Assembly (NCBI RefSeq): GCF_024298765.1
Contig: NZ_CP101210.1
Strand: one strand, 5' to 3'
DNA: 64,000 bases
DNA from: Escherichia coli
Lineage (GTDB): Bacteria > Pseudomonadota > Gammaproteobacteria > Enterobacterales > Enterobacteriaceae
Shown: positions 5,352 through 64,000 of the stretch, piece after piece
How the letters are laid out: every line of letters begins with the position of its first letter
Position numbering within the stretch: the first letter of the stretch is position 1
Notes under the pieces: generated by a model
What the model was told of the DNA's origin: nothing
Databases searched by the model: none
What the model saw: only the letters and a program-made list of their open reading frames with translations
Made by a program: the position numbers and the translations under genes

Positions 5352-5358
5352 AAATGAT

Positions 5359-5391
5359 GCCCGGTTGCTTTTCACAACCGGGCATTTTTTT
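5359..5391. terminator. rho-independent terminator between convergent exbD and yghA
   Basis: Hairpin gcccggttg / caaccgggc followed by attttttt. Confidence 0.6.
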
Positions 5392-23484: not shown

Positions 23485-23529
23485 GGCTGGCGGGATACTT
23501 TTTACTATCAACGATAAGGTCAGGCTGAA

Positions 23530-24879
23530 TTGGCGGGTTTTAACATCAAACATTGGTTTGCAGATGGCGCGTTTCGCACCATTATTCGCAATAGCGCCTG
23601 GTTAGGCTCCAGTAATGTCGTGAGCGCTTTGCTGGGTCTGTTGGCGCTCTCGTGTGCCGGTAAAGGGATGACGCCCGCCATGTTTGGCGTACTGGTGATT
23701 GTACAATCGTACGCCAAGTCGATCAGCGATTTTATTAAGTTTCAGACATGGCAGCTGGTGGTTCAGTACGGAACACCAGCATTAACCAACAATAATCCGC
23801 AGCAATTCCGCAATGTCGTCTCATTTTCCTTCTCGCTGGATATCGTCAGCGGCGCGGTGGCGATTGTCGGCGGCATTGCCTTACTCCCTTTTCTTTCCCA
23901 TTCATTAGGTCTGGATGACCAAAGCTTTTGGCTGGCAGCGCTGTATTGCACGCTCATTCCTTCAATGGCTTCCTCCACGCCGACCGGCATTCTGCGTGCG
24001 GTAGATCGCTTCGATCTAATTGCTGTACAGCAAGCGACGAAACCTTTTCTGCGCGCAGCGGGGAGCGTCGTTGCCTGGTATTTTGACTTTGGTTTTGCGG
24101 GTTTTGTTATTGCCTGGTACGCCTCGAATCTTGTTGGCGGCACCATGTACTGGTGGTTTGCCGCACGTGAATTACGCCGCAGAAATATCCATAACGCGTT
24201 CAAATTGAATCTGTTTGAGTCTGCCCGACACATCAAAGGCGCGTGGAGTTTTGTCTGGTCAACCAACATTGCCCATTCCATCTGGTCGGCGCGTAATTCG
24301 TGCAGCACAGTGTTGGTGGGGATCGTGTTAGGACCCGCTGCCGCCGGGTTATTTAAAATCGCCATGACATTCTTCGACGCCGCCGGAACGCCAGCGGGTT
24401 TACTGGGCAAAAGTTTTTACCCAGAGGTGATGCGTTTAGATCCGCGTACCACCAGACCGTGGTTGTTAGGCGTGAAGTCAGGTTTACTGGCGGGCGGAAT
24501 CGGTATTCTGGTGGCGCTCGCGGTGTTGATTGTCGGCAAGCCGCTCATTTCGCTGGTGTTTGGCGTTAAGTATCTCGAAGCGTATGACCTGATTCAGGTG
24601 ATGCTGGGCGCAATTGTGATCTCGATGCTGGGCTTCCCTCAGGAGTCATTGCTATTGATGGCGGGAAAACAGCGCGCTTTTCTCGTGGCGCAAACCATCG
24701 CCTCAATCGGCTACATCGTATTGCTGTTCATGTTCTGTCATCTGTTTGGCGTGCTGGGAGCAGCGTTTGCTTATTTCGGTGGTCAATGTCTGGATGTGGT
24801 GCTTTCGCTAATTCCGACCTTAAAGGCATTTTTTCAGCGCCATTCCTTGCTTTATAACGCAGCCGGAGAGAAATCCTGA
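23530..24879 (+). CDS. yghQ: MOP/Wzx-like multi-pass membrane flippase-family protein (start uncertain)
   Basis: Long hydrophobic ORF; first in-frame ATG at 23668; frame open upstream to TTG at 23530. Confidence 0.65.
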   Translation: MAGFNIKHWFADGAFRTIIRNSAWLGSSNVVSALLGLLALSCAGKGMTPAMFGVLVIVQSYAKSISDFIKFQTWQLVVQYGTPALTNNNPQQFRNVVSFSFSLDIVSGAVAIVGGIALLPFLSHSLGLDDQSFWLAALYCTLIPSMASSTPTGILRAVDRFDLIAVQQATKPFLRAAGSVVAWYFDFGFAGFVIAWYASNLVGGTMYWWFAARELRRRNIHNAFKLNLFESARHIKGAWSFVWSTNIAHSIWSARNSCSTVLVGIVLGPAAAGLFKIAMTFFDAAGTPAGLLGKSFYPEVMRLDPRTTRPWLLGVKSGLLAGGIGILVALAVLIVGKPLISLVFGVKYLEAYDLIQVMLGAIVISMLGFPQESLLLMAGKQRAFLVAQTIASIGYIVLLFMFCHLFGVLGAAFAYFGGQCLDVVLSLIPTLKAFFQRHSLLYNAAGEKS

Positions 24880-25703
24880 TGATGAGAAAATATTTCCCGC
24901 TAGAGGCGAGCGAGCGTCTATTTGTTGCGATTGAAGAAGATGATGTCGTTGATGCACAGGTCAGTTTGCCGCCGACTATCGCACTAAGTTGTACCACCGA
25001 AATCATCCATGATAATTACGCGTTATGCCTGCAATTCTGGCTCAATGGCGTCAATCGCCAGGAGTTACTGCGTTTAATATGCAAACAGGCCAAAGGCGAT
25101 GAGCTGACTGCTGATGAGCGCAAACAATTTAAATACATGCGAGCGCGCTACAAGCACCTGCGTTTTGCGCAACGGCTGTATTTAAAGAAGCATCAGGCCG
25201 GATTTTTATTCGGCAAAACGACCGTTTTTTTGGGGCGTTTTCAGGACGGCTTTCGTAACGGTAAGAAAAATATTGTGTCGTATTACGGCAACCTGTTACG
25301 GGTTTATTTAAGCTCTCCGGTCTGGTCGTTGGTGAACTATTCATTACGCCATAGCCAGTTAGAAAGCGTAAGCGGTTTTATTGCCTATCGGCAAAAGCAA
25401 ATGCATACCCTGAAAGAGATAATTGCCAAACCGCGACTAACCGGCAGGGAATTTCATGATGTGCGAAAAATCATCAGCCAGCAGGTTTCTTATTACGACA
25501 CCCTAAGATCGCTTGATCCTGAAAATAAAGAAGCGTTACAGATTTCCCGCTTCCTCGCCGCCATTAATGGCCTGATGGGGGATAAACACGACGACATGGT
25601 GGCGGATGATATGGAAAACCGCCAGTCGTATGATGCACCGATGGCGCTGGATAGCGATATTCGCCAGCGCTTAGAACTGCTGATTTCGCGTTTTCCGCTA
25701 TAA
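24879..25703 (+). CDS. hypothetical cytoplasmic protein, 274 aa (island gene)
   Basis: ATG overlaps yghQ stop (TGATG); GGAGAG RBS at 24865-24870; no domain recognised. Confidence 0.6.
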   Translation: MMRKYFPLEASERLFVAIEEDDVVDAQVSLPPTIALSCTTEIIHDNYALCLQFWLNGVNRQELLRLICKQAKGDELTADERKQFKYMRARYKHLRFAQRLYLKKHQAGFLFGKTTVFLGRFQDGFRNGKKNIVSYYGNLLRVYLSSPVWSLVNYSLRHSQLESVSGFIAYRQKQMHTLKEIIAKPRLTGREFHDVRKIISQQVSYYDTLRSLDPENKEALQISRFLAAINGLMGDKHDDMVADDMENRQSYDAPMALDSDIRQRLELLISRFPL

Positions 25704-25711
25704 CCGGAGCA

Positions 25712-26275
25712 ATGATGTCATCTCGTTTGATTATTGCGCTGATTATCATGCTCTTAGCCCCGGGTGTGCAGGCACACAATTTCGTCACTGGCAAAACGGT
25801 TACCCCCGTTTATATCCAGGAAGGCGGCGAGCTGCTTCGGAATAGCGACGACGAAATTCACTACCAAAAGTGGAACAGCACCCAATTGGCGGGAAAAGTT
25901 CGCATTATTCAGTATATCGCCGGGCGTAAGTCGGCGAAGAAAAAGAACTCACTGTTAATTAAAGCAGTTGAAGCGGCAAACTTTCCGCAGGATCGTTTTC
26001 AGCCCACCACCATTGTGAACACTGATGATGCCATCTTTGGTACCGGCTATTTTGTCGTTGGCAAAATCGAAAAAAATAAACGCCGCTATCCATGGGCGCA
26101 ATTCGTTATTGACGGCAATGGACAGGGACGCGTTGCCTGGCACTTGCAGGAGCAGAGTTCAACCATTCTGGTGCTGAATAAAACCGGGCAAATTCAGTGG
26201 GCAAAGGACGGCAGCCTGACGCCGGAAGAGGTAGATCATGTCATTGCGCTGGCGCAGAAGCTGATCAATGAATAA
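25712..26275 (+). CDS. YtfJ-family secreted/periplasmic protein paralog
   Basis: 187 aa; signal peptide MMSSRLIIALIIMLLAPGVQA; strong resemblance to E. coli YtfJ as recalled (KVRxxQHIAGR, TTIVNTDDAI, VQWAKDGxLTPEEV). Confidence 0.65.
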   Translation: MMSSRLIIALIIMLLAPGVQAHNFVTGKTVTPVYIQEGGELLRNSDDEIHYQKWNSTQLAGKVRIIQYIAGRKSAKKKNSLLIKAVEAANFPQDRFQPTTIVNTDDAIFGTGYFVVGKIEKNKRRYPWAQFVIDGNGQGRVAWHLQEQSSTILVLNKTGQIQWAKDGSLTPEEVDHVIALAQKLINE

Positions 26276-26304
26276 AAATTCAAAGGATTGAGGGCGTTAG
26301 TGAG

Positions 26305-27375
26305 ATGAAGCTGGTTGAACACTACATCATGCGTGGTACGCGCCGTCTGGTGCTGATTATCGTCGGTTTTCTGATCTTTATTTTCGCCAGCTACTCCGCA
26401 CAGCGTTATCTGACCGAAGCGGCAAATGGGACATTAGCTCTTGATGTTGTGCTGGATATCGTTTTCTACAAAGTGCTGATTGCACTGGAGATGTTGTTAC
26501 CTGTTGGACTGTATGTGTCAGTTGGCGTGACGCTAGGGCAGATGTATACCGACTCGGAAATTACCGCTATCTCTGCGGCGGGGGGCAGTCCGGGACGCTT
26601 GTACAAAGCCGTTCTTTATCTGGCGATACCGCTAAGTATTTTTGTCACCCTTCTGTCGATGTATGGTCGTCCGTGGGCTTATGCGCAGATTTATCAACTG
26701 GAGCAACAGTCACAGTCGGAGCTGGATGTTCGCCAGTTGCGGGCAAAGAAATTTAACACTAACGATAACGGACGAATGATCCTTTCGCAGACGGTTGATC
26801 AGGATAATAATCGCCTGACTGATGCGCTGATTTATACTTCTACTGCTAATCGAACCCGCATTTTCCGCGCCCGTTCGGTTGATGTGGTTGACCCATCACC
26901 TGAGAAACCGACCGTTATGTTGCATAACGGGACCGCCTATCTTCTCGATCATCAGGGGCGTGACGACAACGAACAGATCTACCGTAATCTGCAATTACAT
27001 CTGAATCCGCTGGATCAAAGCCCTAACGTCAAACGCAAAGCAAAATCGGTCACGGAGCTGGCGCGCTCCGCCTTTCCTGCCGATCATGCCGAACTGCAAT
27101 GGCGACAAAGCCGTGGCCTGACAGCATTGTTGATGGCGCTGCTGGCCATTTCATTAAGTCGGGTAAAACCGCGGCAAGGGCGATTTTCAACGTTATTGCC
27201 ACTGACGTTGCTGTTTGTTGCCATTTTTTATGGCGGCGACGTCTGCCGTACGCTGGTGGCTAACGGCGCGATTCCCCTCATTCCTGGTTTGTGGTTAGTA
27301 CCCGGACTCATGCTAATGGGCCTGCTGATGTTGGTCGCACGCGACTTCTCTTTGCTGCAGAAATTTTCCCGATGA
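26305..27375 (+). CDS. LptF-like permease (YjgP/YjgQ family) paralog
   Basis: 356 aa; 6-TM pattern with large periplasmic loop; YTDSEIT and KPRQGRF motifs resembling LptF. Confidence 0.7.
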   Translation: MKLVEHYIMRGTRRLVLIIVGFLIFIFASYSAQRYLTEAANGTLALDVVLDIVFYKVLIALEMLLPVGLYVSVGVTLGQMYTDSEITAISAAGGSPGRLYKAVLYLAIPLSIFVTLLSMYGRPWAYAQIYQLEQQSQSELDVRQLRAKKFNTNDNGRMILSQTVDQDNNRLTDALIYTSTANRTRIFRARSVDVVDPSPEKPTVMLHNGTAYLLDHQGRDDNEQIYRNLQLHLNPLDQSPNVKRKAKSVTELARSAFPADHAELQWRQSRGLTALLMALLAISLSRVKPRQGRFSTLLPLTLLFVAIFYGGDVCRTLVANGAIPLIPGLWLVPGLMLMGLLMLVARDFSLLQKFSR

Positions 27376-28451
27376 ATGTTTTCAGTCGCTATTTAATCCG
27401 TCATCTCTTTCTCGGTTTTGCCGCCGCCGCAGGGCTATTGCTGCCGCTTTTTACCACCTTCAACCTGATTAACGAACTGGATGATGTCAGCCCGGGTGGT
27501 TATCGCTGGACTCAGGCGGTGCTGGTGGTGCTGATGACCTTACCGCGCACACTGGTCGAACTTTCGCCGTTTATCGCCTTATTGGGAGGGATTGTCGGCC
27601 TGGGGCAGTTATCGAAAAACAGTGAGCTTACCGCCATTCGCAGCACGGGGTTTTCTATCTTCCGTATTGCACTGGTGGCGCTGGTTGCCGGGATATTGTG
27701 GACTGTTTCATTAGGCGCGATAGATGAGTGGGTGGCGTCGCCATTGCAGCAACAGGCGCTGCAAATCAAATCGACTGCCACTGCGTTGGGGGAGGACGAT
27801 GACATTACCGGCAATATGCTGTGGGCCAGGCGTGGTAATGAATTTGTGACGGTGAAATCGCTGAACGAGCAGGGCCAGCCGGTGGACGTGGAGATATTTC
27901 ATTACCGCGATGATCTCTCGCTCGAATCCTACATTTATGCGCGCAGTGCTACCATTGAAGACGACAAAACGTGGATCCTGCATGGTGTGAATCATAAAAA
28001 ATGGCTGAATGGCAAAGAAACGCAGGAAACATCTGATAATCTTCCCTGGCAATCGGCCTTCACCAGTATGAATCTTGAAGAGTTATCGATGCCGGGAAAT
28101 ACTTTTTCTGTCCGTCAACTTAATCATTACATCCATTATTTGCAGGAAACCGGGCAACCCAGCAGCGAATACCGCCTTGCACTGTGGGAAAAACTGGGAC
28201 AACCCATCTTGACCCTGGCGATGATTTTGCTGGCTGTGCCGTTTACCTTTAGCGCCCCGCGTTCGCCTGGGATGGGTAGCCGTCTCGCTGTAGGCGTCAT
28301 CGTTGGCTTACTCACCTGGATCAGCTATCAAATCATGGTCAATCTGGGATTGTTATTTGCGTTGAGCGCACCTGTTACCGCGCTCGGTTTACCGGTAGCG
28401 TTTGTGCTGGTGGCGTTGAGCCTGGTGTATTGGTATGACAGACAACATTAA
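27372..28451 (+). CDS. LptG-like permease (YjgP/YjgQ family) paralog
   Basis: ATG at 27372 overlaps upstream stop (ATGA); MNVFSRYLIRHLF N-terminus typical of LptF/G family; 359 aa. Confidence 0.7.
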   Translation: MNVFSRYLIRHLFLGFAAAAGLLLPLFTTFNLINELDDVSPGGYRWTQAVLVVLMTLPRTLVELSPFIALLGGIVGLGQLSKNSELTAIRSTGFSIFRIALVALVAGILWTVSLGAIDEWVASPLQQQALQIKSTATALGEDDDITGNMLWARRGNEFVTVKSLNEQGQPVDVEIFHYRDDLSLESYIYARSATIEDDKTWILHGVNHKKWLNGKETQETSDNLPWQSAFTSMNLEELSMPGNTFSVRQLNHYIHYLQETGQPSSEYRLALWEKLGQPILTLAMILLAVPFTFSAPRSPGMGSRLAVGVIVGLLTWISYQIMVNLGLLFALSAPVTALGLPVAFVLVALSLVYWYDRQH

Positions 28452-28485
28452 ACCCGCCGTGGCGCAACACCACAGCGGGCTCACA

Positions 28486-29658
28486 TTACTGCTTCAGAGT
28501 AGCAAATGCCTGAATGATGGCATCGATTTGCTCACGACTGTGGGCAGCGTTTACGCTACAGCGCAGCAGCGTGATGCCTGCAGGCGCGGCAGGTGGCAGG
28601 ATAAGATTCACATAAACGCCCAGCGAAATAAGCTCGCGCCAGATGCGTAAACCTTCCTCTTTCGAACCGATTATTACTGGCACTACCGGGCTAATATGTG
28701 AACTTAACTCATAACCCAGTTTTTGCAGACCGTCATACAGATGGTTGGCGTTATCCATCAGTTTTTGCCGCAGCTCTGGTTGTGTGGAAATGGTTCTTAA
28801 CGACGAGCGCACGGTCGCAATGCAGGACGGAGAAGGAGAGGCGGTAAAAATATACGGGCGGCTGCCGTAGCGCAGCACTTCCATCGCTTCTGAACCCACG
28901 GCAAAACCACCAATGGAAGCCAAACTTTTACTGAAGGTGCCGACGATAATATCCACGTCGTCTTCAACGCCAACGGCTTCAACCAGTCCGCGGCCTGTTG
29001 CGCCTAACACGCCAAACGAATGTGCTTCATCGACAATCAAATAACCACCGAGACGACGTTTGATATCAACAATTTCTGCCAGCGGCGCAACGTCACCGAG
29101 CATACTGTAGATGCCTTCAACGATAATAATCGCCTCTTTCGCCCGTTCACCGAGGCGGACCATGCGCCGTTCCAGATCGTTGACGTCATTATGGCGGAAA
29201 CGAATAATCTCTGCGCCGCCGAGAGAACAGGCGTCATAAATACTGGCGTGGCTGTCGGCATCCAGTAACACCACGGCGTTATGGTCGGCAAGTGCGCTGA
29301 TGACACCTAAATTAGCGGTATAACCGGTTGAAAAAACGATAGCGGTAGGGCGATTGAAAAACTCGGCAATCTCTTTCTCTAACGCCAGATGCGGCGCATA
29401 ACTGCCGTTTGCCATACGAGAACCGGTGGTGCCAGTGCCTTGGGCCGCTAACGCTGCCTGACCTTCGCGGATAGCATCATGATTAAAGGTTAAACCGAGA
29501 TAATTATTGGTCCCGGCCAGAATCACTTTTTTATTGCCGATCCGGCCTTCGGTGGCGGAATACACTTCATCAATACAGGTGCCAAATGGTGTTAACCCGT
29601 TGTCACTAAATTGCAGGCGCTCGCCAGCAAGGCGCGCATATTTATCGTATAGCCCCAT
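28486..29658 (-). CDS. alpha-oxoamine synthase, serine palmitoyltransferase-like (PLP-dependent)
   Basis: 390 aa; DEAHSFG and GTFSKSLAS motifs (Lys244 codon at 28927-28929) typical of SPT/KBL/AONS family. Confidence 0.75.
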   Translation of the reverse strand: MGLYDKYARLAGERLQFSDNGLTPFGTCIDEVYSATEGRIGNKKVILAGTNNYLGLTFNHDAIREGQAALAAQGTGTTGSRMANGSYAPHLALEKEIAEFFNRPTAIVFSTGYTANLGVISALADHNAVVLLDADSHASIYDACSLGGAEIIRFRHNDVNDLERRMVRLGERAKEAIIIVEGIYSMLGDVAPLAEIVDIKRRLGGYLIVDEAHSFGVLGATGRGLVEAVGVEDDVDIIVGTFSKSLASIGGFAVGSEAMEVLRYGSRPYIFTASPSPSCIATVRSSLRTISTQPELRQKLMDNANHLYDGLQKLGYELSSHISPVVPVIIGSKEEGLRIWRELISLGVYVNLILPPAAPAGITLLRCSVNAAHSREQIDAIIQAFATLKQ

Positions 29659-29906
29659 TATTTATTCTCCAGCCATGGAAGTAGAGTTTCCATTAATTGC
29701 GCAGGGGTTTTGACATCCAGCAGAATATTAATAGGAATGGAAATATCGAATCTGTCTTCCAGCATCATTAAGAGATCCATCACTTTGATCGACTCCAGGC
29801 CAAGATCGTTGACGAGATCGCTGTCGGGCTTAATTTCCACACCGTTTTCGACCAAATCCTGTAAACAGGAAAGGATGTAATCCATTACTATTTCACGATT
29901 TACCAT
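29658..29906 (-). CDS. dedicated acyl carrier protein
   Basis: 82 aa; DLGLESIKVMDLLMMLEDRF helix-2 region with candidate phosphopantetheine Ser; stop overlaps AOS start (TAATG). Confidence 0.65.
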   Translation of the reverse strand: MVNREIVMDYILSCLQDLVENGVEIKPDSDLVNDLGLESIKVMDLLMMLEDRFDISIPINILLDVKTPAQLMETLLPWLENK

Positions 29907-29937
29907 AGAAACGTTAACACACCTTTAAACAAGACAA

Positions 29938-30852
29938 TCAAAATAGCCCGTTGCGTAATGCGTGTTCCAGGCTAATCCCGGGAAACCAATTAATATCTTC
30001 AGAAATACGGTTATTATTTGCCGACCAGTCGGCGTGGGTTAATTCACGAATTTTCGAGCGGGTCAGCATAGGTTCTTTACCTGCCAGGCGACTCAACGCA
30101 GTACTGATATCCGCAAGGCAGGTGAGTAGCGGCAGAGGAATGCCAACCATCCGCACAGAACCACAACGGGCTTCGGCGGCAAGCTGTCGTACGCGTTGCC
30201 AGTCATAGCCGCCAGCGACGCCATCGCATAATTCATAGGTTTGCGTCTGTACAGTTTCGGCGTTTAACCACTGACCCACTGCTTGCGCAAAATCGGTGAC
30301 GTGCAGGAAAGAGAGTTGTGTATCTGGCGCACCAAGTCGTGGCAGCAGGCCGCGCAGCATCCAGTCAAACAGCGGTTTTAACTCTTTATCGCCGGGACCA
30401 TACACGGCTGTCGGGCGAAAAATGCCCAGCGTAATTTCGTCAGCCATTGCGATCAGTCGTTGTTCGGCGACGTGTTTGGAATTTGCGTACCAGGAGAGTT
30501 CGGGATGGCGCGCCGCCAGCGAAGAGATAAACAGAAAACGTTGGCAAAAGCCGCTCTCTTTTGCCGCTTGCATCAGGCGCAGGCTGCCGTCAACGTTACA
30601 GCGGGTAAAAATCTCTTCTTTGTGTCCGCGCACTTGTCCGGCGCAATGGACCACCGCGCTGGCTCCGGCAACCAGTTCGCTAAGCGAATGTGTATCTTCC
30701 AGCGAACCGCGCACCCAGATGAGATTATCATTGACGTGAGCGCGGGCAGTACGCGTCAATGTGCGAACGTGAAAGCCGCGGGCGAGCAGGTTATCGATAA
30801 TATATTTACCGATAAACCCGGTAGCGCCCGTCACCGCGACAGTTTGATTCAT
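29938..30852 (-). CDS. NAD(P)-dependent epimerase/dehydratase-fold reductase
   Basis: ATG at 30852 (MNQTVAVTGATGFIGKYI), 304 aa; YANSK catalytic dyad; track ORF has an N-terminal extension overlapping the upstream gene. Confidence 0.7.
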   Translation of the reverse strand: MNQTVAVTGATGFIGKYIIDNLLARGFHVRTLTRTARAHVNDNLIWVRGSLEDTHSLSELVAGASAVVHCAGQVRGHKEEIFTRCNVDGSLRLMQAAKESGFCQRFLFISSLAARHPELSWYANSKHVAEQRLIAMADEITLGIFRPTAVYGPGDKELKPLFDWMLRGLLPRLGAPDTQLSFLHVTDFAQAVGQWLNAETVQTQTYELCDGVAGGYDWQRVRQLAAEARCGSVRMVGIPLPLLTCLADISTALSRLAGKEPMLTRSKIRELTHADWSANNNRISEDINWFPGISLEHALRNGLF

Positions 30853-32573
30853 GCCAGGGATTCCTGCACATGAAGGCTTGCAGCATAAGCCTTCTGATAA
30901 CGTTTTTTCGCTTCCGCACGGGCAGGCTTGCCGGAGGACGTTCGGGGAATACTGTGGGGCGGCAACAGATCGATAGCCGCGGTCACGCCAAATTCGCTTT
31001 GGATCCGTGCTACCAGTGCGTGGATAAGCTGCCCACGACGTTCTTCGTCGCTGATCCGACACTGGATCTGCAAAATGATTTTTTCCTGGGCGGTAACAAA
31101 AGCAATCGCATCGCCAGAATGAATTTCCGGTTCCTGTTCCGCAATGTATTCAATATCCTGCGGCCAGATATTACGGCCACGAATAATAATCAGATCTTTA
31201 ATGCGTCCGGTGACATACAGATAACCGTCCAGCAGATAACCGAGGTCGCCGGTGTCTAACCAGCCCGTCGCGGCAATCTCGTCTTGCGAAACCTGGTCGC
31301 CAAAGTACCCGCTCATCAGGCTGGGGCCGGAGATGCAAATATGGCCTACCACACGTTCCGCGACAGGTATATCTGCTTCATTGCGGATTTCAATGCCATG
31401 TTCCGGCAACGCTTTACCGCAGTTGACGAAAGTCGATACGGCGCGTGTTTCAGCACCCGGCGCGACGGCTTTACCCTGGTATTCGAGGATGTCGCGATCC
31501 ACTTCGTTAACCACAACCCCGCAGGCTTCATCAGAGAAGCTGACAGCCAGCGCATTTTCTGCCAGTCCGTAGCACGGCATGAAAGTTTTATCGTCAAAGT
31601 TAACCTGACGAAAACATTCAGCGAATTGATGGAGTTGTTCTGCGGAGATCGGTTCTGCTCCAATACCAGCGACGCGCCAGCAGGAAAGATCCAGTTCAGC
31701 GAGATCTTTTTCATTCACGCGGCGCTGGCACAATTCATAGCCAAACGGCGGTGCAACGGAAACGGTGCCGCGATTTTTACTGATCAATTTAAGCCATTGC
31801 AGAGGACGCATGGCAAAATCCTGAGTGCGCAAATAATCTACTGAAAGCTGCGTGGCGACGGGGGTCAGGAGAAAGCCGACCAGTCCCATATCATGGTAGA
31901 AAGGCAGCCAGGAGACGCAGCGGTCGCCAGGGCGTAATTTAATGCCATCGTGGCTTATAGCACGTAGATTAGCCATCACTTCGTGATGGGTGATAATGAC
32001 GCCACGGGGAAAACGGGTGCTGCCGGAGGTGTACTGGAGGTAGGCGATATCGTTCGGAACTGGACGCTGGAGCGCAACATCGGCTTCCGGTAATGCCTTA
32101 AACCAGGCGTGGCTTAAAACATGTAATTCGGGGTTGTTGTTATGCGTCGCGGCATTGACCAGCGGTAACCACTCATCACCAGTGATAATGGCTGCGGGCT
32201 GGCAACTTGCCAGTAAACCCTGCAGTTTGGCGCTCCAGGAATCCCGCTGACCGACGCCCATTGGAATCGCCAACGGGACGGCGACTAAGCCGGCACACTG
32301 GCAGGAAAAAAAAGCCTCTACAAACCCGCTACTCGTTTCGGCAATCAGCGCCACGCGATCGCCTTTTTTCAGGTTCAGCGATAACAACCGCTTCGCACCA
32401 GCTTCGGCACGCGCTTTTAACGTCTGATATTCCAGTTGATCTTCAAGTTGGCAACGTCTGTCATAAAAATTCATTCCGGCGCTACTCAGAGCGGCGTAGT
32501 CCAAAGCATCAACCAGCGTTGGAAAATCGGCATAGCGCATAGGTAGGGAATGCGTAAAGATTTTATTAGACAT
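30849..32573 (-). CDS. fatty acyl-AMP ligase / acyl-ACP synthetase-like adenylating enzyme
   Basis: About 574 aa from ATG at 32573; YTSGSTRFPRG core motif; GRIKDLIIIRGRNIWPQDIE; stop overlaps next start. Confidence 0.7.
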   Translation of the reverse strand: MSNKIFTHSLPMRYADFPTLVDALDYAALSSAGMNFYDRRCQLEDQLEYQTLKARAEAGAKRLLSLNLKKGDRVALIAETSSGFVEAFFSCQCAGLVAVPLAIPMGVGQRDSWSAKLQGLLASCQPAAIITGDEWLPLVNAATHNNNPELHVLSHAWFKALPEADVALQRPVPNDIAYLQYTSGSTRFPRGVIITHHEVMANLRAISHDGIKLRPGDRCVSWLPFYHDMGLVGFLLTPVATQLSVDYLRTQDFAMRPLQWLKLISKNRGTVSVAPPFGYELCQRRVNEKDLAELDLSCWRVAGIGAEPISAEQLHQFAECFRQVNFDDKTFMPCYGLAENALAVSFSDEACGVVVNEVDRDILEYQGKAVAPGAETRAVSTFVNCGKALPEHGIEIRNEADIPVAERVVGHICISGPSLMSGYFGDQVSQDEIAATGWLDTGDLGYLLDGYLYVTGRIKDLIIIRGRNIWPQDIEYIAEQEPEIHSGDAIAFVTAQEKIILQIQCRISDEERRGQLIHALVARIQSEFGVTAAIDLLPPHSIPRTSSGKPARAEAKKRYQKAYAASLHVQESLA

Positions 32574-32600
32574 ATACACCACGAAAAAATTGGATATCAA

Positions 32601-56281: not shown

Positions 56282-56845
56282 GTGCCTGAACGCGGATTCA
56301 CTCTTCTGGAAATCATGCTGGTGATTTTCCTTATCGGCCTTGCCAGTGCGGGCGTGGTACAGACGTTTGCGACCGATTCTGAATCGCCCGCGAAAAAAGC
56401 GGCGCAGGATTTTCTGACTCGCTTTGCGCAGTTTAAAGACAGGGCAGTGATCGAAGGGCAGACACTCGGTGTACTAATCGACCCGCCGGGATACCAGTTT
56501 ATGCAGCGTCGTCAGGGGCAGTGGTTGCCCGTTTCTGCGACCCGGTTATCGGCACAGGTTACGGTGCCGAAACAGGTGCAGATGCTGTTACAACCCGGAA
56601 GTGATATCTGGCAGAAGGAATATGCGCTGGAGCTGCAGCGTCGCCGCCTGACGCTGCACGATATTGAACTGGAGCTGCAAAAAGAGGCGAAAAAGAAGAC
56701 ACCGCAGATCCGTTTTTCGCCTTTTGAACCCGCCACGCCGTTTACGCTGCGCTTCTACTCGGCGGCGCAAAACGCATGTTGGGCGGTAAAGCTGGCGCAC
56801 AATGGCGTGTTATCCCTCAATCAATGTGATGAGAGGATGCCATGA
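56282..56845 (+). CDS. gspH: type II secretion minor pseudopilin H
   Basis: GTG start; MPERGFTLLEIMLV prepilin signature. Confidence 0.8.
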   Translation: MPERGFTLLEIMLVIFLIGLASAGVVQTFATDSESPAKKAAQDFLTRFAQFKDRAVIEGQTLGVLIDPPGYQFMQRRQGQWLPVSATRLSAQVTVPKQVQMLLQPGSDIWQKEYALELQRRRLTLHDIELELQKEAKKKTPQIRFSPFEPATPFTLRFYSAAQNACWAVKLAHNGVLSLNQCDERMP

Positions 56846-57213
56846 AGCGCGGATTTACCTTGCTGGAAGTGATGCTCGCGCTGGCGATTTTTGCGTTGGC
56901 CGCCATGGCGGTGTTACAGATTGCCAGCGGTGCGCTGAGTAATCAGCAGATTCTTGAGGAGAAAACGGTAGCGGGCTGGGTAGCTGAAAACCAGACCGCG
57001 CTGCTTTACCTGATGACCCGTGAACAACGAGCGGTCAGGCACCAGGGCGAGAGTGATATGGCAGGAAGCCGCTGGTACTGGCGAACCACACCGCTGAGTA
57101 CAGGCAACGCGCTGCTCCAGGCGGTGGATATTGAAGTCAGCCTTCACGAAGACTTTTCGCCGGTGATTCAGTCACGACGCGCCTGGTTTAGCGCCGTGGG
57201 AGGCCAACAGTGA
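56842..57213 (+). CDS. gspI: type II secretion minor pseudopilin I
   Basis: MKRGFTLLEVMLA; overlaps gspH stop. Confidence 0.85.
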   Translation: MKRGFTLLEVMLALAIFALAAMAVLQIASGALSNQQILEEKTVAGWVAENQTALLYLMTREQRAVRHQGESDMAGSRWYWRTTPLSTGNALLQAVDIEVSLHEDFSPVIQSRRAWFSAVGGQQ

Positions 57214-57815
57214 GAAGGACTCGCGCTGGTTTCACGTTACTGGAAATACTGGTGGCGATAGCCATTTTTGCCTCGCTGGCACTGATGGCGCAGCAGGTGA
57301 CTAACGGCGTCGCACGCGTGAATAGCGCCGTCGCCGATCACGATCAAAAACTAAACCTCATGCAGCAAACGATGAGTTTTCTGACCCACGATCTGACCCA
57401 AATAATGCCGCGTCCGGTAAGAAGCGATCAGGGCCAGCGTGAACCAGCGTTACTGGCTGGCCCTGGCGTGCTGGCGTCTGAGAGTGGAGGAATGCGTTTT
57501 GTGCGCGGCGGTGTGGTTAACCCGTTGATGCGTCTGCCACGCAGCAATCTGCTCACCGTCGGTTACCGCATTCATGACGGCTATCTCGAACGGTTAGCCT
57601 GGCCGCTGACCGACGCAGCAGGCAGCGTGAAGCCGACAATGCAAAAGTTGATTCCGGCGGATTCGCTCCGCTTGCAGTTCTACGACGGCACGCGCTGGCA
57701 GGAGAGCTGGTCGTCAGTACAGGCGATCCCTGTGGCAGTGCGCATGACCCTGCATTCGCCGCAATGGGGCGAGATTGAACGCATCTGGTTGTTACGCGGG
57801 CCGCAATTATCATGA
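57210..57815 (+). CDS. gspJ: type II secretion minor pseudopilin J
   Basis: GTG start; RAGFTLLEILVA prepilin signature. Confidence 0.8.
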   Translation: MRRTRAGFTLLEILVAIAIFASLALMAQQVTNGVARVNSAVADHDQKLNLMQQTMSFLTHDLTQIMPRPVRSDQGQREPALLAGPGVLASESGGMRFVRGGVVNPLMRLPRSNLLTVGYRIHDGYLERLAWPLTDAAGSVKPTMQKLIPADSLRLQFYDGTRWQESWSSVQAIPVAVRMTLHSPQWGEIERIWLLRGPQLS

Positions 57816-58789
57816 TCACCTCACCACCAAAACGCGGAATGGCACTGGTCGTGGTGCTGGTATTGCTGGCGGTTATGATGCTGGTGACCATCACGCTTTC
57901 CGGGCGAATGCAGCAACAACTTGGGCGAACGCGCAGCCAGCAGGAGTACCAGCAGGCGCTGTGGTACAGCGCCAGTGCGGAAAGCCTGGCGTTGAGCGCA
58001 CTCAGTCTGAGCCTGAAAAATGAAAAGCGCGTGCATCTGGCGCAGCCGTGGGCTTCCGGCCCTCGTTTTTTCCCACTGCCGCAGGGGCAAATTGCCGTCA
58101 CCCTGCGTGACGCCCAGGCCTGCTTTAACCTGAATGCCCTCGCTCAGCCGACAACGGCGTCGCGTCCTATCGCGGTACAACAACTGATTGCCCTGATCTC
58201 GCGCCTGGATGTGCCTGCTTATCGGGCCGAACTGATAGCCGAAAGCCTGTGGGAGTTTATTGACGAGGACCGCAGCGTGCAGACGCGTCTGGGGCGTGAA
58301 GACAGCGAGTATCTCGCCCGCTCGGTGCCGTTCTACGCCGCCAATCAACCGCTGGCCGATATCAGTGAGATGCGCGTGGTACAGGGAATGGACGCCGGAC
58401 TTTATCAAAAACTGAAACCGCTGGTCTGTGCGCTGCCGATGACCCGCCAGCAAATCAACATCAATACCTTAGACGTCACGCAAAGTGTGATTCTTGAGGC
58501 GCTGTTTGACCCGTGGTTAAGCCCTGTTCAGGCGCGGGCGTTATTACAACAACGTCCGGCGAAGGGCTGGGAAGATGTCGATCAGTTTCTTGCTCAGCCG
58601 CTACTTGCAGACGTCGATGAGCGTACTAAAAAACAGCTAAAAACCATCCTGAGCGTGGACAGCAATTACTTCTGGCTGCGTTCAGATATCACCGTGAATG
58701 AGATTGAACTGACGATGAATTCGTTAATTGTCCGCATGGGCCCACAACACTTTTCTGTTCTCTGGCATCAGACAGGAGAAAGTGAGTGA
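57812..58789 (+). CDS. gspK: type II secretion minor pseudopilin K
   Basis: 325 aa; N-terminal TM helix; overlaps gspJ stop. Confidence 0.85.
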   Translation: MITSPPKRGMALVVVLVLLAVMMLVTITLSGRMQQQLGRTRSQQEYQQALWYSASAESLALSALSLSLKNEKRVHLAQPWASGPRFFPLPQGQIAVTLRDAQACFNLNALAQPTTASRPIAVQQLIALISRLDVPAYRAELIAESLWEFIDEDRSVQTRLGREDSEYLARSVPFYAANQPLADISEMRVVQGMDAGLYQKLKPLVCALPMTRQQININTLDVTQSVILEALFDPWLSPVQARALLQQRPAKGWEDVDQFLAQPLLADVDERTKKQLKTILSVDSNYFWLRSDITVNEIELTMNSLIVRMGPQHFSVLWHQTGESE

Positions 58790-59964
58790 GTTCCATGCTT
58801 GAGATTTTTTTCCCGCTTTGCGCCGCTGATCCCATCCGTTGGCAGCGCCATACACCCGACGTGGAGCACGGTATCTGGCCTGACGTTGCTGACGAACGTC
58901 TCCAGCAATGGCTGCAAACTGATGCGATTCGACTCTACATTCCCGGCGAATGGATCAGCGTCTGGCAGGTTGAACTGCCTGATGTGCCCCGCAAGCAGAT
59001 ACCGACGATTCTGCCCGCCTTGCTGGAAGAAGAGCTGAACCAGGATATCGATGAACTGCATTTCGCCCCGTTGAAAATCGACCAGCAACTGGCAACCGTA
59101 GCTGTGATTCACCAGCAGCATATGCGCAACATTGCGCAGTGGTTGCAGGCAAACGGCATCGCCCGCGCTACCGTCGCGCCGGACTGGATGTCCATTCCTT
59201 GTGGGTTTATGGCTGGCGATGCGCAACGGGTTATCTGCCGTATCGATGAATGCCGGGGATGGAGCGCCGGGCGGGCGCTGGCTCCGGTCATGTTCCGCGC
59301 ACAGCTCAATGAGCAGAATTTACCGATTTCACTAACTGTGGTCGGCATTGCACCGGAAGAACTGTCTGCATGGGCTGGTGCGGACGCCGAACGCCTGACC
59401 GTTACGGCTCTGCCCGCCATTACCACTTATGGCGAACCGGAAGGGAACCTGCTAACAGGGCCGTGGCAGCCTCGTGTTAGCTACCGAAAACAGTGGGCGC
59501 GCTGGCGGGTGATGATTCTGCCGATATTGCTGATTCTGGTTGCGCTGGTAGTGGAACGGGGCGTGACGTTATGGAGCGTCAGCGAACAGGTGGCGCAAAG
59601 CCGCACCCAGGCGGAGAAACAGTTCTTAACGCTATTCCCGGAGCAGAAGCGGATTGTGAATTTACGCTCGCAGGTGACGATGGCGCTGAAAAAATATCGC
59701 CCACAGGCTGATGATACCGATCTGCTTGCCGAGTTGTCTGCGATCGCCAGTACCCTGAAATCCGCATCACTTTCCGACATTGAGATGCGTGGTTTCACCT
59801 TTGATCAAAAACGCCAGACGCTTCACCTCCAGCTACGGGCTGCGAACTTTGCCAGCTTCGACAAACTGCGTAGCGCACTGGCGGTAGATTATGTTGTGCA
59901 ACAGGACGCGTTACAGAAAGAGGGTGATGCGGTTTCCGGCGGCGTAACGTTGCGGAGGAAATAA
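58786..59964 (+). CDS. gspL: type II secretion system protein L
   Basis: 392 aa (GTG 58786 or ATG 58795); single TM near residue 250. Confidence 0.8.
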   Translation: MSSMLEIFFPLCAADPIRWQRHTPDVEHGIWPDVADERLQQWLQTDAIRLYIPGEWISVWQVELPDVPRKQIPTILPALLEEELNQDIDELHFAPLKIDQQLATVAVIHQQHMRNIAQWLQANGIARATVAPDWMSIPCGFMAGDAQRVICRIDECRGWSAGRALAPVMFRAQLNEQNLPISLTVVGIAPEELSAWAGADAERLTVTALPAITTYGEPEGNLLTGPWQPRVSYRKQWARWRVMILPILLILVALVVERGVTLWSVSEQVAQSRTQAEKQFLTLFPEQKRIVNLRSQVTMALKKYRPQADDTDLLAELSAIASTLKSASLSDIEMRGFTFDQKRQTLHLQLRAANFASFDKLRSALAVDYVVQQDALQKEGDAVSGGVTLRRK

Positions 59965-59965
59965 C

Positions 59966-60502
59966 ATGTTACGCGATAAATTTATTCACTATTTTCAGCA
60001 ATGGCGTGAACGCCAGTTAAGCCGTGGCGAACACTGGCTGACACAACACCTGGCGGGGCGTTCGCCGCGTGAAAAGGGCATGTTACTGGCAGCGGCGGTG
60101 TTTCTGTTTAGCGCCGGATATTACGTCCTCATCTGGCAGCCTTTGAGCGAACGGATTGAGCAACAGGAGACGATGTTGCAACAGATGGTGGCGATGAACG
60201 CGCGACTGAAGAGCGCCGCGCCGGATATTATTGCGGCGCGAAAATCCGCCACAACAACGCCTGCACAGGTATCGCGGGTCATCAGCGATAGTGCTTCTGC
60301 GCACTCAGTGGTTATCAAGCGGATAGCCGAGCGCGGGGAGAATATTCAGGTCTGGATAGATCCGGTGGTGTTTAATGACCTGCTGAACTGGTTAAAAGCA
60401 CTGGATGAAAAGTATGCGCTGCGGGTGACACAAATTGATGTCAGCGCAGGTGAGAAGCCTGGAATGGTGAATGTGCAGCGGCTGGAATTTGGACGGGGAT
60501 AA
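59966..60502 (+). CDS. gspM: type II secretion system protein M
   Basis: 178 aa; N-terminal TM; last gene of operon. Confidence 0.8.
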   Translation: MLRDKFIHYFQQWRERQLSRGEHWLTQHLAGRSPREKGMLLAAAVFLFSAGYYVLIWQPLSERIEQQETMLQQMVAMNARLKSAAPDIIAARKSATTTPAQVSRVISDSASAHSVVIKRIAERGENIQVWIDPVVFNDLLNWLKALDEKYALRVTQIDVSAGEKPGMVNVQRLEFGRG

Positions 60503-60615
60503 AGTATCAGGAGATTAATATCAATAAAATTACTCTCGTTAACGTGGCGAGAGTAATTCCCCCAGACTTTATAAGCTAATTTTTTTCGTGAAGGTTATTG
60601 TCAGAGCCAAAAGCA

Positions 60616-60645
60616 AAAACCCGCCTTGTGGCGGGTTCTTAAGAA
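60616..60645 (-). terminator. rho-independent terminator (minus strand)
   Basis: cccgcc-ttgt-ggcggg stem-loop; on the minus strand it is followed by tttttgctttt. Confidence 0.6.
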
Positions 60646-60649
60646 TTAG

Positions 60650-60668
60650 TGGTGCCCGGACTCGGAAT
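60650..60668 (-). other. 19-nt tRNA-Phe 3'-end fragment (att-site direct-repeat remnant; island boundary)
   Basis: tggtgcccggactcggaat equals reverse complement of tRNA-Phe 3' end (...ATTCCGAGTCCGGGCACCA); no full tRNA present. Confidence 0.7.
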
Positions 60669-60915
60669 GAAACTGGTTATATAACCAATTGTTTTGTATC
60701 GACTGTTTTATCCTTGTTCTTTTTGAGGCCACCAATGAGGCCCCCATGTGCAATTCGAATTCTTTTGACGCTATAATCCCTCTTTCTTGTGGTTTGTTGT
60801 AATCATTTTGTCTGGTTCGATATGCTGAATCGCGGAATCGAAGTGACAACAAAATACAGAGATTTATAAAATACCTGGCTACCTGTGTTAGGGAGCGTTA
60901 ACGCACAGATTTTGT

Positions 60916-61242
60916 TTATGGCTGCCAGAAATGATCTGATGGTTTGTCGTCTGGCTCTGCAAGTACCCTGTTGATATCCCGGGAACCATGAACGATACGT
61001 TCGATACGAACTTCAGTATCCAGTACCCTGAACAGCAGAAGGTAACGACCATACGAACAACCTCTGATCCCAGCCCCTAACTCGGGTCTTTCTCTGTAGA
61101 GTACTGGCGATTCGGCTATCAACAGACATTGTTGGTAAAGCTCTTCGGTAAAACTGATTGCACGGACAGGATTATCCTGAGCGATCCAGTCACCTATAGC
61201 TTCAAGATCGTGTTCTGCTAATGGTGAAACAGTCAGTTTCAT
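60916..61242 (-). CDS. ParE/RelE-family type II toxin
   Basis: 108 aa; 4-nt overlap with upstream antitoxin gene; ParE-like sequence. Confidence 0.7.
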   Translation of the reverse strand: MKLTVSPLAEHDLEAIGDWIAQDNPVRAISFTEELYQQCLLIAESPVLYRERPELGAGIRGCSYGRYLLLFRVLDTEVRIERIVHGSRDINRVLAEPDDKPSDHFWQP

Positions 61243-61502
61243 ATTGGCTGTTCACCTTCTGCCATCTTTTTGTATTTGTGCGTCAGTCGCCCGAATACCT
61301 CTTCAGCACTTTTACTTTCACCGCTGTTGATGCCTGCGGCCACGGCGCTCTGGAGTGATTCAAGCTTTATCTGCTGTTCCCGTTCTTCCAGAGCACGAAG
61401 TCCGGCACGAATGACTTCACTTGTATTGTTGTACCGACCACTTTCTATTTGTTCGCGGATAAACGTTTCAAAGTAAGGACTGAGGGATACACTGGTAGGC
61501 AT
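61239..61502 (-). CDS. ParD-like type II antitoxin
   Basis: 87 aa; ribbon-helix-helix-like N-terminus; immediately upstream of the toxin. Confidence 0.7.
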   Translation of the reverse strand: MPTSVSLSPYFETFIREQIESGRYNNTSEVIRAGLRALEEREQQIKLESLQSAVAAGINSGESKSAEEVFGRLTHKYKKMAEGEQPI

Positions 61503-61573
61503 GGTTATTTTCTCGCCGATTGATTACTATCAATTAATAATAGTTAATATTCGCGAATTGTAAAATACCTCTT

Positions 61574-62440
61574 TTATGCCTTGCGGCTTTTGTTCACTGT
61601 GCTTGCCAGGGCTTCCGGGTAGTGTCTGGCAATAATATCATTAAGCCTGTCAACCAGCTCTGGTTTCCTGAACGTGATGTGCGCGGAGCCCTTCTTAAAG
61701 TATCTGATGCTGAACATCTCATCTTCATAGTCCTCTTTACCCTGAACAGACTGGATGTGATCATCCAGATGAATGGTGATGTTTTCCCGGTTGTCGGGGA
61801 TCGGTTTGCCGCTGAACAGGTGCAGCATTCTTTCCAGATCGGCAAGTCGATCGGCCTGTTGTCCGGTGATAAGATGAAACCCCCACCGGTCCCACCTCAC
61901 CAGATTGTTGACGATAATTTTACTGCCAAATTTGCAGGGTGAATTGGTTTTGTAATTCCAGCTCAGTCCTCTGAAAACGTTGAGCACCCCTCGCTCAAAC
62001 ACTTCATCTTTGTTCTGGTGCAGTTGTTCAAACGTGCTCAGGATATTTGCTTCGCTGATTTCCGGAAAATTATCGTACTCCAGTGACCGGTACCATGTAT
62101 CACGGGCTTGTGCATCCATTAATGACAGCATCCCTGAACGTTGCATCAGATCACGCCAGATTTCGCGGTCAAGGTTGCGGGTGATGGCTTTCATTGCGGT
62201 TTCCGGTTTTTCCATCAGCCAGCAACCGCAGCGAAAATCCTGTTTCATGGCCCAGTCCAGTGCAGTTTTACCTCCGATGCTTTCCGTCAGCACCGAGATT
62301 TCTGCCAGTTGCCGGATAAGTGTGTCGATTTGCAGCAGCGCACTCTTTCGTACAGCCAGAATGTGGCGGATGCTGGTTGAGCCGATAACGTCCGTATGCC
62401 CGTTGACCACTTCCGGACGGGGGGCTGTGATTTCAGACAT
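61574..62440 (-). CDS. hypothetical protein, 288 aa (island cargo)
   Basis: Long ORF with no conflicting frame; function not recognisable. Confidence 0.55.
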   Translation of the reverse strand: MSEITAPRPEVVNGHTDVIGSTSIRHILAVRKSALLQIDTLIRQLAEISVLTESIGGKTALDWAMKQDFRCGCWLMEKPETAMKAITRNLDREIWRDLMQRSGMLSLMDAQARDTWYRSLEYDNFPEISEANILSTFEQLHQNKDEVFERGVLNVFRGLSWNYKTNSPCKFGSKIIVNNLVRWDRWGFHLITGQQADRLADLERMLHLFSGKPIPDNRENITIHLDDHIQSVQGKEDYEDEMFSIRYFKKGSAHITFRKPELVDRLNDIIARHYPEALASTVNKSRKA

Positions 62441-62524
62441 AATCGATATTCCTTTTTGCAGATAAATGAAAACGCCAGCCCTGTTCAGGCTGGCGTCAGT
62501 GGAATGAAGTCTGGTGAGTAAGAC

Positions 62525-62767
62525 TCACCGGTTCTGTTGCAGAAGCTGCAACTGGCGCAGGATACGGATATCCTCCCTGGCCTGTTCGATACAGGGCAAC
62601 AGTGCTGCCGAATCCGTTCTATCCTCATCGTTGTCAAAGATAATTCCCGATTCGCAGTCGATATTGTCCTGTAGCCACGCAATCAGAATATCCAGTGCGG
62701 TTTCCGTGGTTAATGATTTCATGTTGTTCCTGGTTACCAGTCGAAAGTGGGCAGGTCCGGCAGACAT
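62525..62767 (-). CDS. hypothetical small protein, 80 aa
   Basis: ORF only; partially overlaps the next ORF. Confidence 0.35.
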   Translation of the reverse strand: MSAGPAHFRLVTRNNMKSLTTETALDILIAWLQDNIDCESGIIFDNDEDRTDSAALLPCIEQAREDIRILRQLQLLQQNR

Positions 62768-63225
62768 TCAGCGCTGGCATCCAGATGAATGAGACTGACG
62801 CCATAACGTCGGGTAAGTGTGACAACCAGACGACGGAACGTTTTTGACAGGCCCAGGCGCTTAAGCCGCAGAACCGGGTATGACCACGCATCGGTACGTA
62901 ACAGATATCCGCTACCTGTGAAATGAATCCATTCTGATTCGCCGGTGCCATTCGTCTGATGTGACAGCGAGTACAGCCAGGCGTTGTCCTTTGCCGTGAT
63001 ATGCGCGGTACTGCAGCGTATGCCGGTAAGGGCCGCCGCAGATGATGGCGTGCGCTCTGCTGATGTCCGGTCAGATTCATCAACAACACGAAGGGAGTAA
63101 CCGTTATCGCAGACCACGTTAATCAGTTCAGCGAGAGTAACACCATCGACGTCAACGACAATGCGCCCCATGTTCAGTGCCTGCACGTTAATGCTGTCGG
63201 CTTCCAGCGTCAGGGCCAGTTTCAT
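62734..63225 (-). CDS. hypothetical protein downstream of CbtA-like toxin (YeeW-position gene)
   Basis: 163-aa ORF; start overlaps toxin stop by 4 nt. Confidence 0.5.
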   Translation of the reverse strand: MKLALTLEADSINVQALNMGRIVVDVDGVTLAELINVVCDNGYSLRVVDESDRTSAERTPSSAAALTGIRCSTAHITAKDNAWLYSLSHQTNGTGESEWIHFTGSGYLLRTDAWSYPVLRLKRLGLSKTFRRLVVTLTRRYGVSLIHLDASAECLPDLPTFDW

Positions 63226-63599
63226 TGTTTCGCCCCCGGATGTTTACCCAGGGTAATGTTATTTACCGTTCTGTAATTGTCGCGGGCCATCAGGCCGGTT
63301 GCCCGGCGGGCCCGGAGGATATCAATACTGTTTATTAACTGAGAACGGGTACAGGCGCTGAATCCTGGCTGGTCGGTACGTACCAGTGCGTATTTTTCAA
63401 CGAGAAAGTTCACCGCATCGCACAGTGAAATGCCTGCCTCAATATGCTGCTCAATCACACGTTCATCAGCGAACGGTGTGTCATTCAGTGTGAGGCCGTA
63501 ATGCTGGTCCAACAGTCGGGTGAGCAGTGTCTGCCAGATGGTGACGGGAGACGGGCAGCGCGATGCCTCCCGTACGTGTGTGTCAGGTAATGTTTTCAT
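63222..63599 (-). CDS. CbtA/YeeV-family type IV toxin (cytoskeleton-binding)
   Basis: ATG at 63599 (MKTLP...), 125 aa; near-identical to the CbtA/YkfI/YpjF family as recalled. Confidence 0.8.
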   Translation of the reverse strand: MKTLPDTHVREASRCPSPVTIWQTLLTRLLDQHYGLTLNDTPFADERVIEQHIEAGISLCDAVNFLVEKYALVRTDQPGFSACTRSQLINSIDILRARRATGLMARDNYRTVNNITLGKHPGAKQ

Positions 63600-63645
63600 C
63601 TTAAGTTCTCTGTAACTGGTAGTGCTAAAGGTGAGATATTCGGGG

Positions 63646-64000
63646 TTATGAGGTGGTTGCGGGTGCCAGTGTCGGATAAACAGCCATATAAACGTAACCA
63701 CAGCTGCCGAGGGTGTCGGCTTCGCAGGTCAGCCCTCTGGCATACAGCGTGACGGTATGCTGATGGCGGGGATTCAGTTCACCGCTGGTGAGCATGAGTT
63801 CCAGTTGTTTCATCAGCAGCGGAAAGGCCTGGTCCAGATGATACGCATCCGCGTCGCTAAACTGCCCCCTGATACCGGCGCGGTCGGCAAGGTAATGCAA
63901 CCGGTTACCCTCCTGCACCAGACGTGCCCCGAAACAGGGCGTCACGGTGCAGGGGAGCCCCCACCAGGGGCGGTCGTTGTTGTTGTCGGGATGCGTTGTC
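63646..64000 (-). CDS. CbeA/YeeU-family antitoxin, 3' portion (5' end beyond window end)
   Basis: Frame stays open to the window edge (…DNNNDRPWWGLPCTVTPCFGARL…); matches CbeA/YfjZ family. Confidence 0.75.
   Translation of the reverse strand, partial: TTHPDNNNDRPWWGLPCTVTPCFGARLVQEGNRLHYLADRAGIRGQFSDADAYHLDQAFPLLMKQLELMLTSGELNPRHQHTVTLYARGLTCEADTLGSCGYVYMAVYPTLAPATTS

Follow-up and report, generated by a model that had tools for sequence, protein, structure and literature searches.

[quoted passage not shown] In the founding addiction module, that of RK2/RP4, the toxin belongs to the same superfamily as the one discussed here, the operon follows the same logic, and the target is likewise presumed to be gyrase; the RK2/RP4 antitoxin differs, however, from ours, which is of the CC2985/Caulobacter type. 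Caulobacter ParDE1 (PDB 3kxe), V. cholerae ParDE2 (7b22/7r5a), and Mesorhizobium ParDE3 (5ceg/6x0a) combine the same PF03693 antitoxin and PF05016 toxin families with the same gene order and coupling and with similar sizes. Mesorhizobium ParE is ~39-40% identical to the toxin described here, and our antitoxin aligns with V. cholerae ParD2 and Caulobacter ParD1 over its residues 3-64. Unlike these three systems, the present pair lies at the distal end of an island that is integrated at an E. coli tRNA gene, and its toxin carries a variable C-terminal tail of 16-18 residues that is predicted to be disordered.

Members of the family have been tied both to gyrase and to the persistence of the DNA that encodes them. 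RK2 ParE is a gyrase inhibitor (Jiang et al. 2002), M. tuberculosis ParE1 inhibits gyrase, and the V. cholerae ParEs kill cells after loss of chromosome II. The closest functional analogy to our locus is provided by ParE_SO/CopA_SO and by paaR2-paaA2-parE2 of E. coli O157 CP933P, in which ParE-family toxins are found on integrated P4-like or prophage elements. As cited in PMC8978831, ParE_SO/CopA_SO stabilises the Shewanella prophage CP4So, and MosAT stabilises SXT; paaR2-paaA2-parE2 is thought to stabilise CP933P (PMC7167474), and further TA precedents for integrated elements are sgiAT for SGI1 and HipAB for a Shewanella island. The analogy is not exact. The antitoxins of the CP4So and CP933P systems differ from ParD, being CopA in the one and PaaA2 with the regulator PaaR2 in the other, so that paaR-paaA-parE has three components, and the O157 ParE2 matches our toxin weakly in sequence (E ~5e-3).

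Homologues of the same subfamily are found on Salmonella Rubislaw pCFSAN006171_1 (IncF) and on Pantoea megaplasmids, where ParE is 70-79% identical in amino acid sequence, the DNA is 72-77% identical, and each copy is annotated as the same TA pair. These homologues have a near-identical ParD N-terminus and the same conserved block upstream of parD. They differ from the E. coli copy in being plasmid-borne, in the symmetry of the candidate operator palindrome (8/9 per arm versus 7/9), in a stronger Shine-Dalgarno sequence, and in their toxin tails.

The E. coli pair was examined within a 64,000-nt stretch of the E. coli chromosome (contig NZ_CP101210.1), which we call the window; its positions 60400-62500 are 100% identical to strains 104 and E166. 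The two genes are as follows.

61239-61502, minus strand: parD, encoding an 87-aa ParD-family (CC2985-type, ribbon-helix-helix) antitoxin, from the ORF, PF03693, and TIGR02606.
60916-61242, minus strand: parE, encoding a 108-aa ParE-family toxin, from the ORF, PF05016, PDB relatives, and an AF2 model.

Inspection of the sequence places a 4-nt overlap at 61239-61242, where an ATGA is common to both genes, the parD stop TGA being at 61241-61239 and the parE start ATG at 61242-61240. A good Shine-Dalgarno sequence for parE (AAGGTG, 61258-61253) lies within the 3' end of parD. The genes are small and co-oriented and overlap, with the antitoxin gene first and the toxin gene next, which is the layout of a type II operon. 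The sequence-only reading, which had claimed minus-strand ORFs of 87 and 108 aa with a 4-nt overlap in the classic type II arrangement, thus agrees exactly with the ORF list and the sequence. The pair is far above chance, and the two ORFs are almost certainly ParDE. That they form an intact, bona fide ParD/ParE type II operon at the island end, with addiction as the likeliest effect, we consider likely.

As a gene pair, it is a textbook module already known from standard annotation. RefSeq/PGAP names the toxin (WP_000779483.1) a "type II toxin-antitoxin system RelE/ParE family toxin" and the antitoxin (WP_025492088.1) a "ParD family antitoxin," and the same DNA carries a TA-pair annotation in hundreds of RefSeq genomes. 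Because the RefSeq pipeline already names both genes, we judge the pair itself to be ordinary. Our literature searches found no paper or experiment on this particular parDE pair, and a dedicated paper on the evolution of pheV islands does not mention TA genes, this pair included.

The assignment of the antitoxin, called ParD-like in the sequence-only reading, is borne out by profile searches. ParD matches the Pfam family ParD_antitoxin (PF03693) at 5.1e-17 over residues 3-64 and NCBIfam TIGR02606 with 96.8 bits, against a curated cutoff of 46.2, over profile positions 2-69 of 70. Over residues 3-64, the protein can be aligned with ParD from ParDE complexes of solved structure, the nearest relatives being V. 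cholerae ParD2 (7b22), Caulobacter ParD1 (3kxe_C), and M. tuberculosis ParD1 (8c24_C), and all of its PDB sequence relatives are ParD antitoxins from the same complexes as the relatives of the toxin. The Pfam scan returned PF03693 alone, and no RK2 ParD structure was among the PDB matches; RK2 ParD is a member of a separate Pfam family, and for these reasons we assign our antitoxin to the CC2985/Caulobacter type rather than to the RK2 type. In strain STE15 (NZ_CP095823.1, 4124630-4124921), the parD half occurs alone (query positions 296-587, 100% identity) beside a CbtA-family toxin gene, either as an orphan antitoxin or as a truncated cassette.

Upstream of parD, two elements could serve the expression and control of the operon.

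61537-61564, minus strand: sigma-70-like promoter candidate (TTTACA, 16-nt spacer, TATTAT), with 10/12 consensus matches.
61524-61550, minus strand: conserved block directly upstream of parD, a candidate ParD operator overlapping the -10 element, from a four-locus alignment.

The first is the sole minus-strand promoter-like site in 60500-61700, and it is suggestive only, the total of such sites in that interval being no higher than in shuffles. In the second, 22 of 27 positions are invariant among the E. coli, Salmonella-plasmid, and two Pantoea-plasmid loci, and beyond it the upstream sequence is unrelated among these four loci, which lie in four unrelated genomic contexts. An imperfect palindrome centred at 61537 lies inside the block. 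In the plasmid copies, it reaches 8/9 per arm, a value attained by just 18-28 of 1000 shuffles; the E. coli copy, with 7/9, is by itself at chance level (512/1000 shuffles). We therefore call the block a candidate operator because of its conservation and not because of the symmetry of the E. coli copy. Two other palindromes, ATTGAT-AGTA-ATCAAT (61519-61534) and ATTCGCGAAT, were considered as operators and rejected, the region being AT-rich and a 7/9 palindrome arising in about half of shuffles. Downstream of parE, no canonical terminator was found before attR, the island boundary described below, and Rfam returned no RNA family at E<=0.1 over 58000-64000. The pheV terminator hairpin of K-12 is kept just outside attR (60614-60641, minus strand). 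Because this is the sole terminator-like site downstream of parE, parDE transcripts may run on for ~275 nt.

The sequence-only reading had also placed the pair at the edge of an island, and the following features define that edge.

60650-60668, plus strand: attR, the island boundary, where 19 nt of the pheV 3' end are directly repeated (reverse complement of ATTCCGAGTCCGGGCACCA), from the K-12 alignment.
60669-60840: 172-nt island terminus common to parDE- and AbiE-bearing islands, starting with a degenerate copy of the pheV 3' end.

We located attR by aligning the window with the K-12 pheV-yghD junction. In K-12, pheV directly adjoins yghD (gspM); in the window, homology with K-12 to the left of attR runs on through the pheV terminator hairpin into yghD. 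The 19-mer matches the window exactly at a single place, against a chance expectation of 0. In strain 104, an intact pheV and a tyrosine integrase lie at the far island end, ~72 kb to the right. A tRNA scan of the 64-kb window found no tRNA gene because pheV lies beyond the window end. The parE stop is 247 bp inside attR, and parD-parE are the last genes of the ~72-kb pheV island, with pheV and the integrase at its other end; the description "at the island edge" is therefore correct.

The degenerate pheV copy is a 10-mer, TTCGATTCCG, at 60833-60842 on the minus strand, identical to the pheV T-arm/start of the att core. It lies at the precise point where cassette-specific DNA gives way to the shared 172-nt terminus, and in the AbiE version ACGATTCCA stands in its place. 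As a candidate for attR itself it was rejected, the K-12 alignment putting the true 19-nt attR at 60650-60668. It may be at most a decayed inner att copy; alone, it is at chance level, occurring in 22 of 100 shuffles.

The island is CP4-44-like, of the P4-integrase type, and inserted at pheV, with parDE at the end opposite the integrase. In strain 104, it is a mosaic of IS remnants, a type I restriction-modification system, and sugar-utilisation genes. Its tail backbone runs in the order GTPase, DUF932, antirestriction, RadC, DUF987, CbeA/CbtA, DUF5983, DUF957, and DUF4942, followed by parD-parE. DUF5983, DUF957, and DUF4942 matched none of the NCBIfam or PADLOC models tested. A second TA system, the type IV CbtA (toxin)/CbeA (antitoxin) pair of the conserved backbone, lies ~2 kb from parDE (63222-63945, minus strand).

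Two further observations concern the DNA outside the island. Immediately beyond the boundary, the window contains an intact sslE-pppA-gspS-gspC..M type II secretion (T2SS-beta) locus (44000-60502), of which K-12 has merely remnants (yghD, yghE, and others). Farther away, at ~22726-32600 between yghS and yghO, lie genes for an LPS-biosynthesis-like protein, a YtfJ-family protein, lptF/lptG paralogues, a serine palmitoyltransferase (spt), an acyl carrier protein, an epimerase/dehydratase, and a fatty acyl-AMP ligase. This cluster, which we take to be missing or disrupted in K-12, looks like a module for lipid (sphingolipid-like?) synthesis and export.

At the island end, the pair behaves as part of a larger exchangeable unit.

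60841-61616, minus strand: parDE cassette, comprising a 75-nt 3' region, parE, parD, the promoter region, and the last ~14 codons of DUF4942.

Among 5,426 complete E. coli genomes, 472 have the 587-bp pair, in every case as chromosomal DNA, and in 464 of them its identity is >=99%. It occupies 505 places, mostly one per genome, as against 7,165 places in 3,839 genomes for the DUF4942 backbone module. Homology between the window and parDE-less islands has its limits at 60840 and at 61613-61626, the latter within the final ~14 DUF4942 codons, giving a cassette of ~0.78 kb. In the five parDE-less islands sampled (those of O157 and O104:H4, which adjoin tRNA-Ser genes, and of BL21, CREC-544, and RM13752), what comes after DUF4942 is either the tRNA/att site directly or unrelated remnants. 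A 1,427-bp AbiEi (DUF6088)/AbiEii cassette, present in 667 genomes, fills this interval in pheV islands of the ST131 type; in the example from E. coli ST131 MB1159 (locus positions 4173-5599), AbiEii is annotated as frameshifted. On this comparison of sequences, parDE is an end cassette that an island may have or lack, and at least two such alternatives occupy the terminal slot of CP4-44-like islands.

The cassette also appears to have moved. In strain MS8345, the same island end lies elsewhere in the chromosome, and next to it comes the integrase of another island arranged in tandem. There, the terminal ~1.17 kb, consisting of attR, the 172-nt terminus, parDE, and the last 250 nt of DUF4942 (60650-61822 of the window), is 99.4% identical to the window, with 7 differences in ~1.17 kb and 0 in parE, but beyond 61823 the island backbone is only ~92% identical. 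The contrast between a 99.4% identical end and a ~92% identical backbone indicates a recent exchange of the end module among diverged islands; homologous recombination, with one crossover falling within DUF4942, is the presumed route.

What the cassette does at this position can be considered by analogy with the family. In the mechanism that we favor, the promoter and the conserved operator-like block just upstream of parD would drive the operon, and parE would be translationally coupled to parD through the shared ATGA. ParD would form a ribbon-helix-helix dimer whose N-terminal half, by homology, should bind the operator and repress the operon and whose C-terminal half should wrap and neutralise ParE. 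ParE, when free, would poison DNA gyrase, leading to DNA breaks, SOS induction, and growth arrest or death. Were the island or its distal end lost, labile ParD would no longer be made, and leftover ParE could poison the cell; through such addiction, the cassette and the DNA linked to it would persist. Gyrase inhibition is not uniform across ParE homologues. For the present toxin, the family precedents make gyrase a reasonably probable target, and, as in those precedents, we would expect ParD to be labile and the operon to be autoregulated.

Whether stabilisation of the island is the main selective effect of parDE is a separate matter, and on the analogy with other integrated elements we rate it as a serious possibility that falls somewhat short of even odds. 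Two considerations temper it. First, most islands with the same backbone persist without the cassette, which is therefore not needed for island maintenance. Second, the strain-104 island is full of IS remnants and may excise rarely, so there may be little for an addiction module to prevent.

The first of these considerations is shared by an alternative in which the cassette brings the island no benefit at all. It would be a selfish hitch-hiker, kept by killing on its loss, or an anti-addiction module, in which ParD neutralises a related plasmid ParE. Several observations fit. The near-identity of the parDE-bearing terminal 1.17 kb between islands of ~92% identical backbone suggests that it spreads on its own by recombination, most islands manage without it, and close homologues (77% nucleotide and 79% amino acid identity) are found on a conjugative IncF Salmonella plasmid. 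The anti-addiction concept itself is a published one (Saavedra De Bast 2008). On the other side, the selfish form is compatible with island stabilisation, in that an addiction module at the island end would stabilise linked DNA as a by-product. The anti-addiction form would require cross-neutralisation at ~80% identity, while ParD-ParE pairs are usually specific, as the Laub-lab ParDE work behind PDB 5ceg and 6x0a reportedly found. We regard this alternative as unlikely.

A second alternative treats the cassette as anti-phage (abortive-infection) cargo: infection would stop host expression or degrade ParD, ParE would be freed, and the infection would be aborted. It draws on the company that the cassette keeps. 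Its slot in ST131-type pheV islands is occupied by AbiEi/AbiEii, which belongs to a TA family known for abortive infection, the slot resembles a defence hotspot in being optional and open to exchange, and the island also has a type I restriction-modification system. However, the AbiEii gene of the ST131 example is annotated as frameshifted, and in PADLOC-DB 2.0 at E<=0.01 neither ParE and ParD nor the three neighbour proteins DUF4942, DUF957, and DUF5983 matched any model (0 matches). Our literature searches found no report of phage defence for this ParDE subfamily, and a relative is encoded in one phage record only, from Ralstonia. A defence role also seems improbable, to about the same degree.

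Compared with either of these, island stabilisation by addiction remains the reading that we prefer. Two weaker alternatives turn on the nature and activity of the toxin. First, the toxin could be a RelE-like, ribosome-dependent mRNA endonuclease and no gyrase poison. ParE and RelE belong to one superfamily, and the RefSeq label says merely "RelE/ParE family." The toxin matches Pfam ParE_toxin (PF05016) with an i-Evalue of 9.1e-18 over residues 5-89 (model positions 3-88 of 89), in keeping with the ParE half of its earlier description, and since PF05016 also takes in RelE-like toxins, we examined the question of ParE versus RelE separately. There is a weak match to NCBIfam TIGR02385 RelE_StbE, but its score of 24.3 bits is below the cutoff of 27.9, and the toxin is therefore not filed as RelE/StbE.

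Structural relatives point the same way. All seven PDB sequence matches at E<=0.01 are ParE-type toxins from ParDE, PaaA2-ParE2, or PrpAT complexes, with the same outcome for a single-sequence search and for a 4-sequence profile. They come from Mesorhizobium (6x0a/5ceg), Caulobacter (3kxe), V. cholerae (7r5a), E. coli O157 (ParE2, 5cw7/5czf), and M. tuberculosis (8c24) and include the ParE-like PrpT (7ycs); the top match is 6x0a_A, at 2.8e-13. An AF2 model built from a 4-sequence alignment, with a moderate mean pLDDT of 66 and a TM of ~0.5 to ParE structures, predicts an N-terminal strand, a two-helix hairpin, and a three-strand antiparallel sheet (H7-23, H25-44, E58-64, E67-73, E77-85). In a Foldseek search of this model against the PDB, ranks 1-18 were all ParE, and YoeB, YafQ, and RelE appeared solely at E > 0.3. 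The conserved domain spans residues ~1-92, and residues ~97-108 of the variable tail are those predicted to be disordered. The C-terminal motif H-G-S-R-D aligns with H-G-A-R-D and H-Q-S-M-D of ParE-type toxins, and the partner of the toxin is ParD, not RelB. A RelE-like activity is very improbable.

Second, the genes could have lost their function. Both are full length, with no pseudogene flag in the sampled records, and comparison with the plasmid homologues indicates that both are under strong purifying selection, which is most pronounced on the putative DNA-binding half of ParD. For ParD, the N-terminal 45 codons, which presumably encode the DNA-binding ribbon-helix-helix, have a pN/pS of 0.04-0.06, and the C-terminal half, presumably the toxin-binding part, has one of 0.22-0.23. 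In ParE, compared with the Salmonella and Pantoea homologues, pN is 0.11-0.14 and pS is saturated at 0.73-0.82. A decayed, non-functional remnant, in which an inactive toxin is kept with its antitoxin, would accord with the frequent decay of chromosomal TA toxins, with an old and IS-rich island, and with a Shine-Dalgarno sequence and operator palindrome weaker than in the plasmid relatives, but the strong purifying selection (toxin pN/pS ~0.14-0.17 across genera) argues against it, as does a parE sequence identical between islands at different chromosomal sites, and we hold it to be scarcely credible. ParE is probably an active toxin.

In general, then, the genes are familiar, and it is their optional, alternating status as an end cassette that is the sole mildly new element. 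Apart from its correct annotation, the pair is of little importance, and the analysis makes modest additions: a map of the distal boundary of the pheV island, an optional, exchanged cassette that alternates with AbiE, and a conserved candidate operator. A broader idea, which we put forward tentatively and believe to be rather doubtful, is that the interval between DUF4942 and attR is a dedicated, exchangeable "end slot" of CP4-44-like tRNA islands, in which alternative TA or abortive-infection cassettes act as end-guards. The slot may hold parDE (472 genomes) or AbiEi/AbiEii (667) and may in most cases be empty, its cassettes abutting the degenerate copy of the tRNA 3' end. Such cassettes may shield the integrase-distal end from deletion, give phage defence, or both, and parDE, instead of being an isolated TA system, may then represent one of the alleles at a defence/addiction hotspot. 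If the end slot holds systematically, it would bring a small gain in understanding how E. coli pathogenicity and fitness islands keep their distal ends and would also show where islands park TA or defence cargo.
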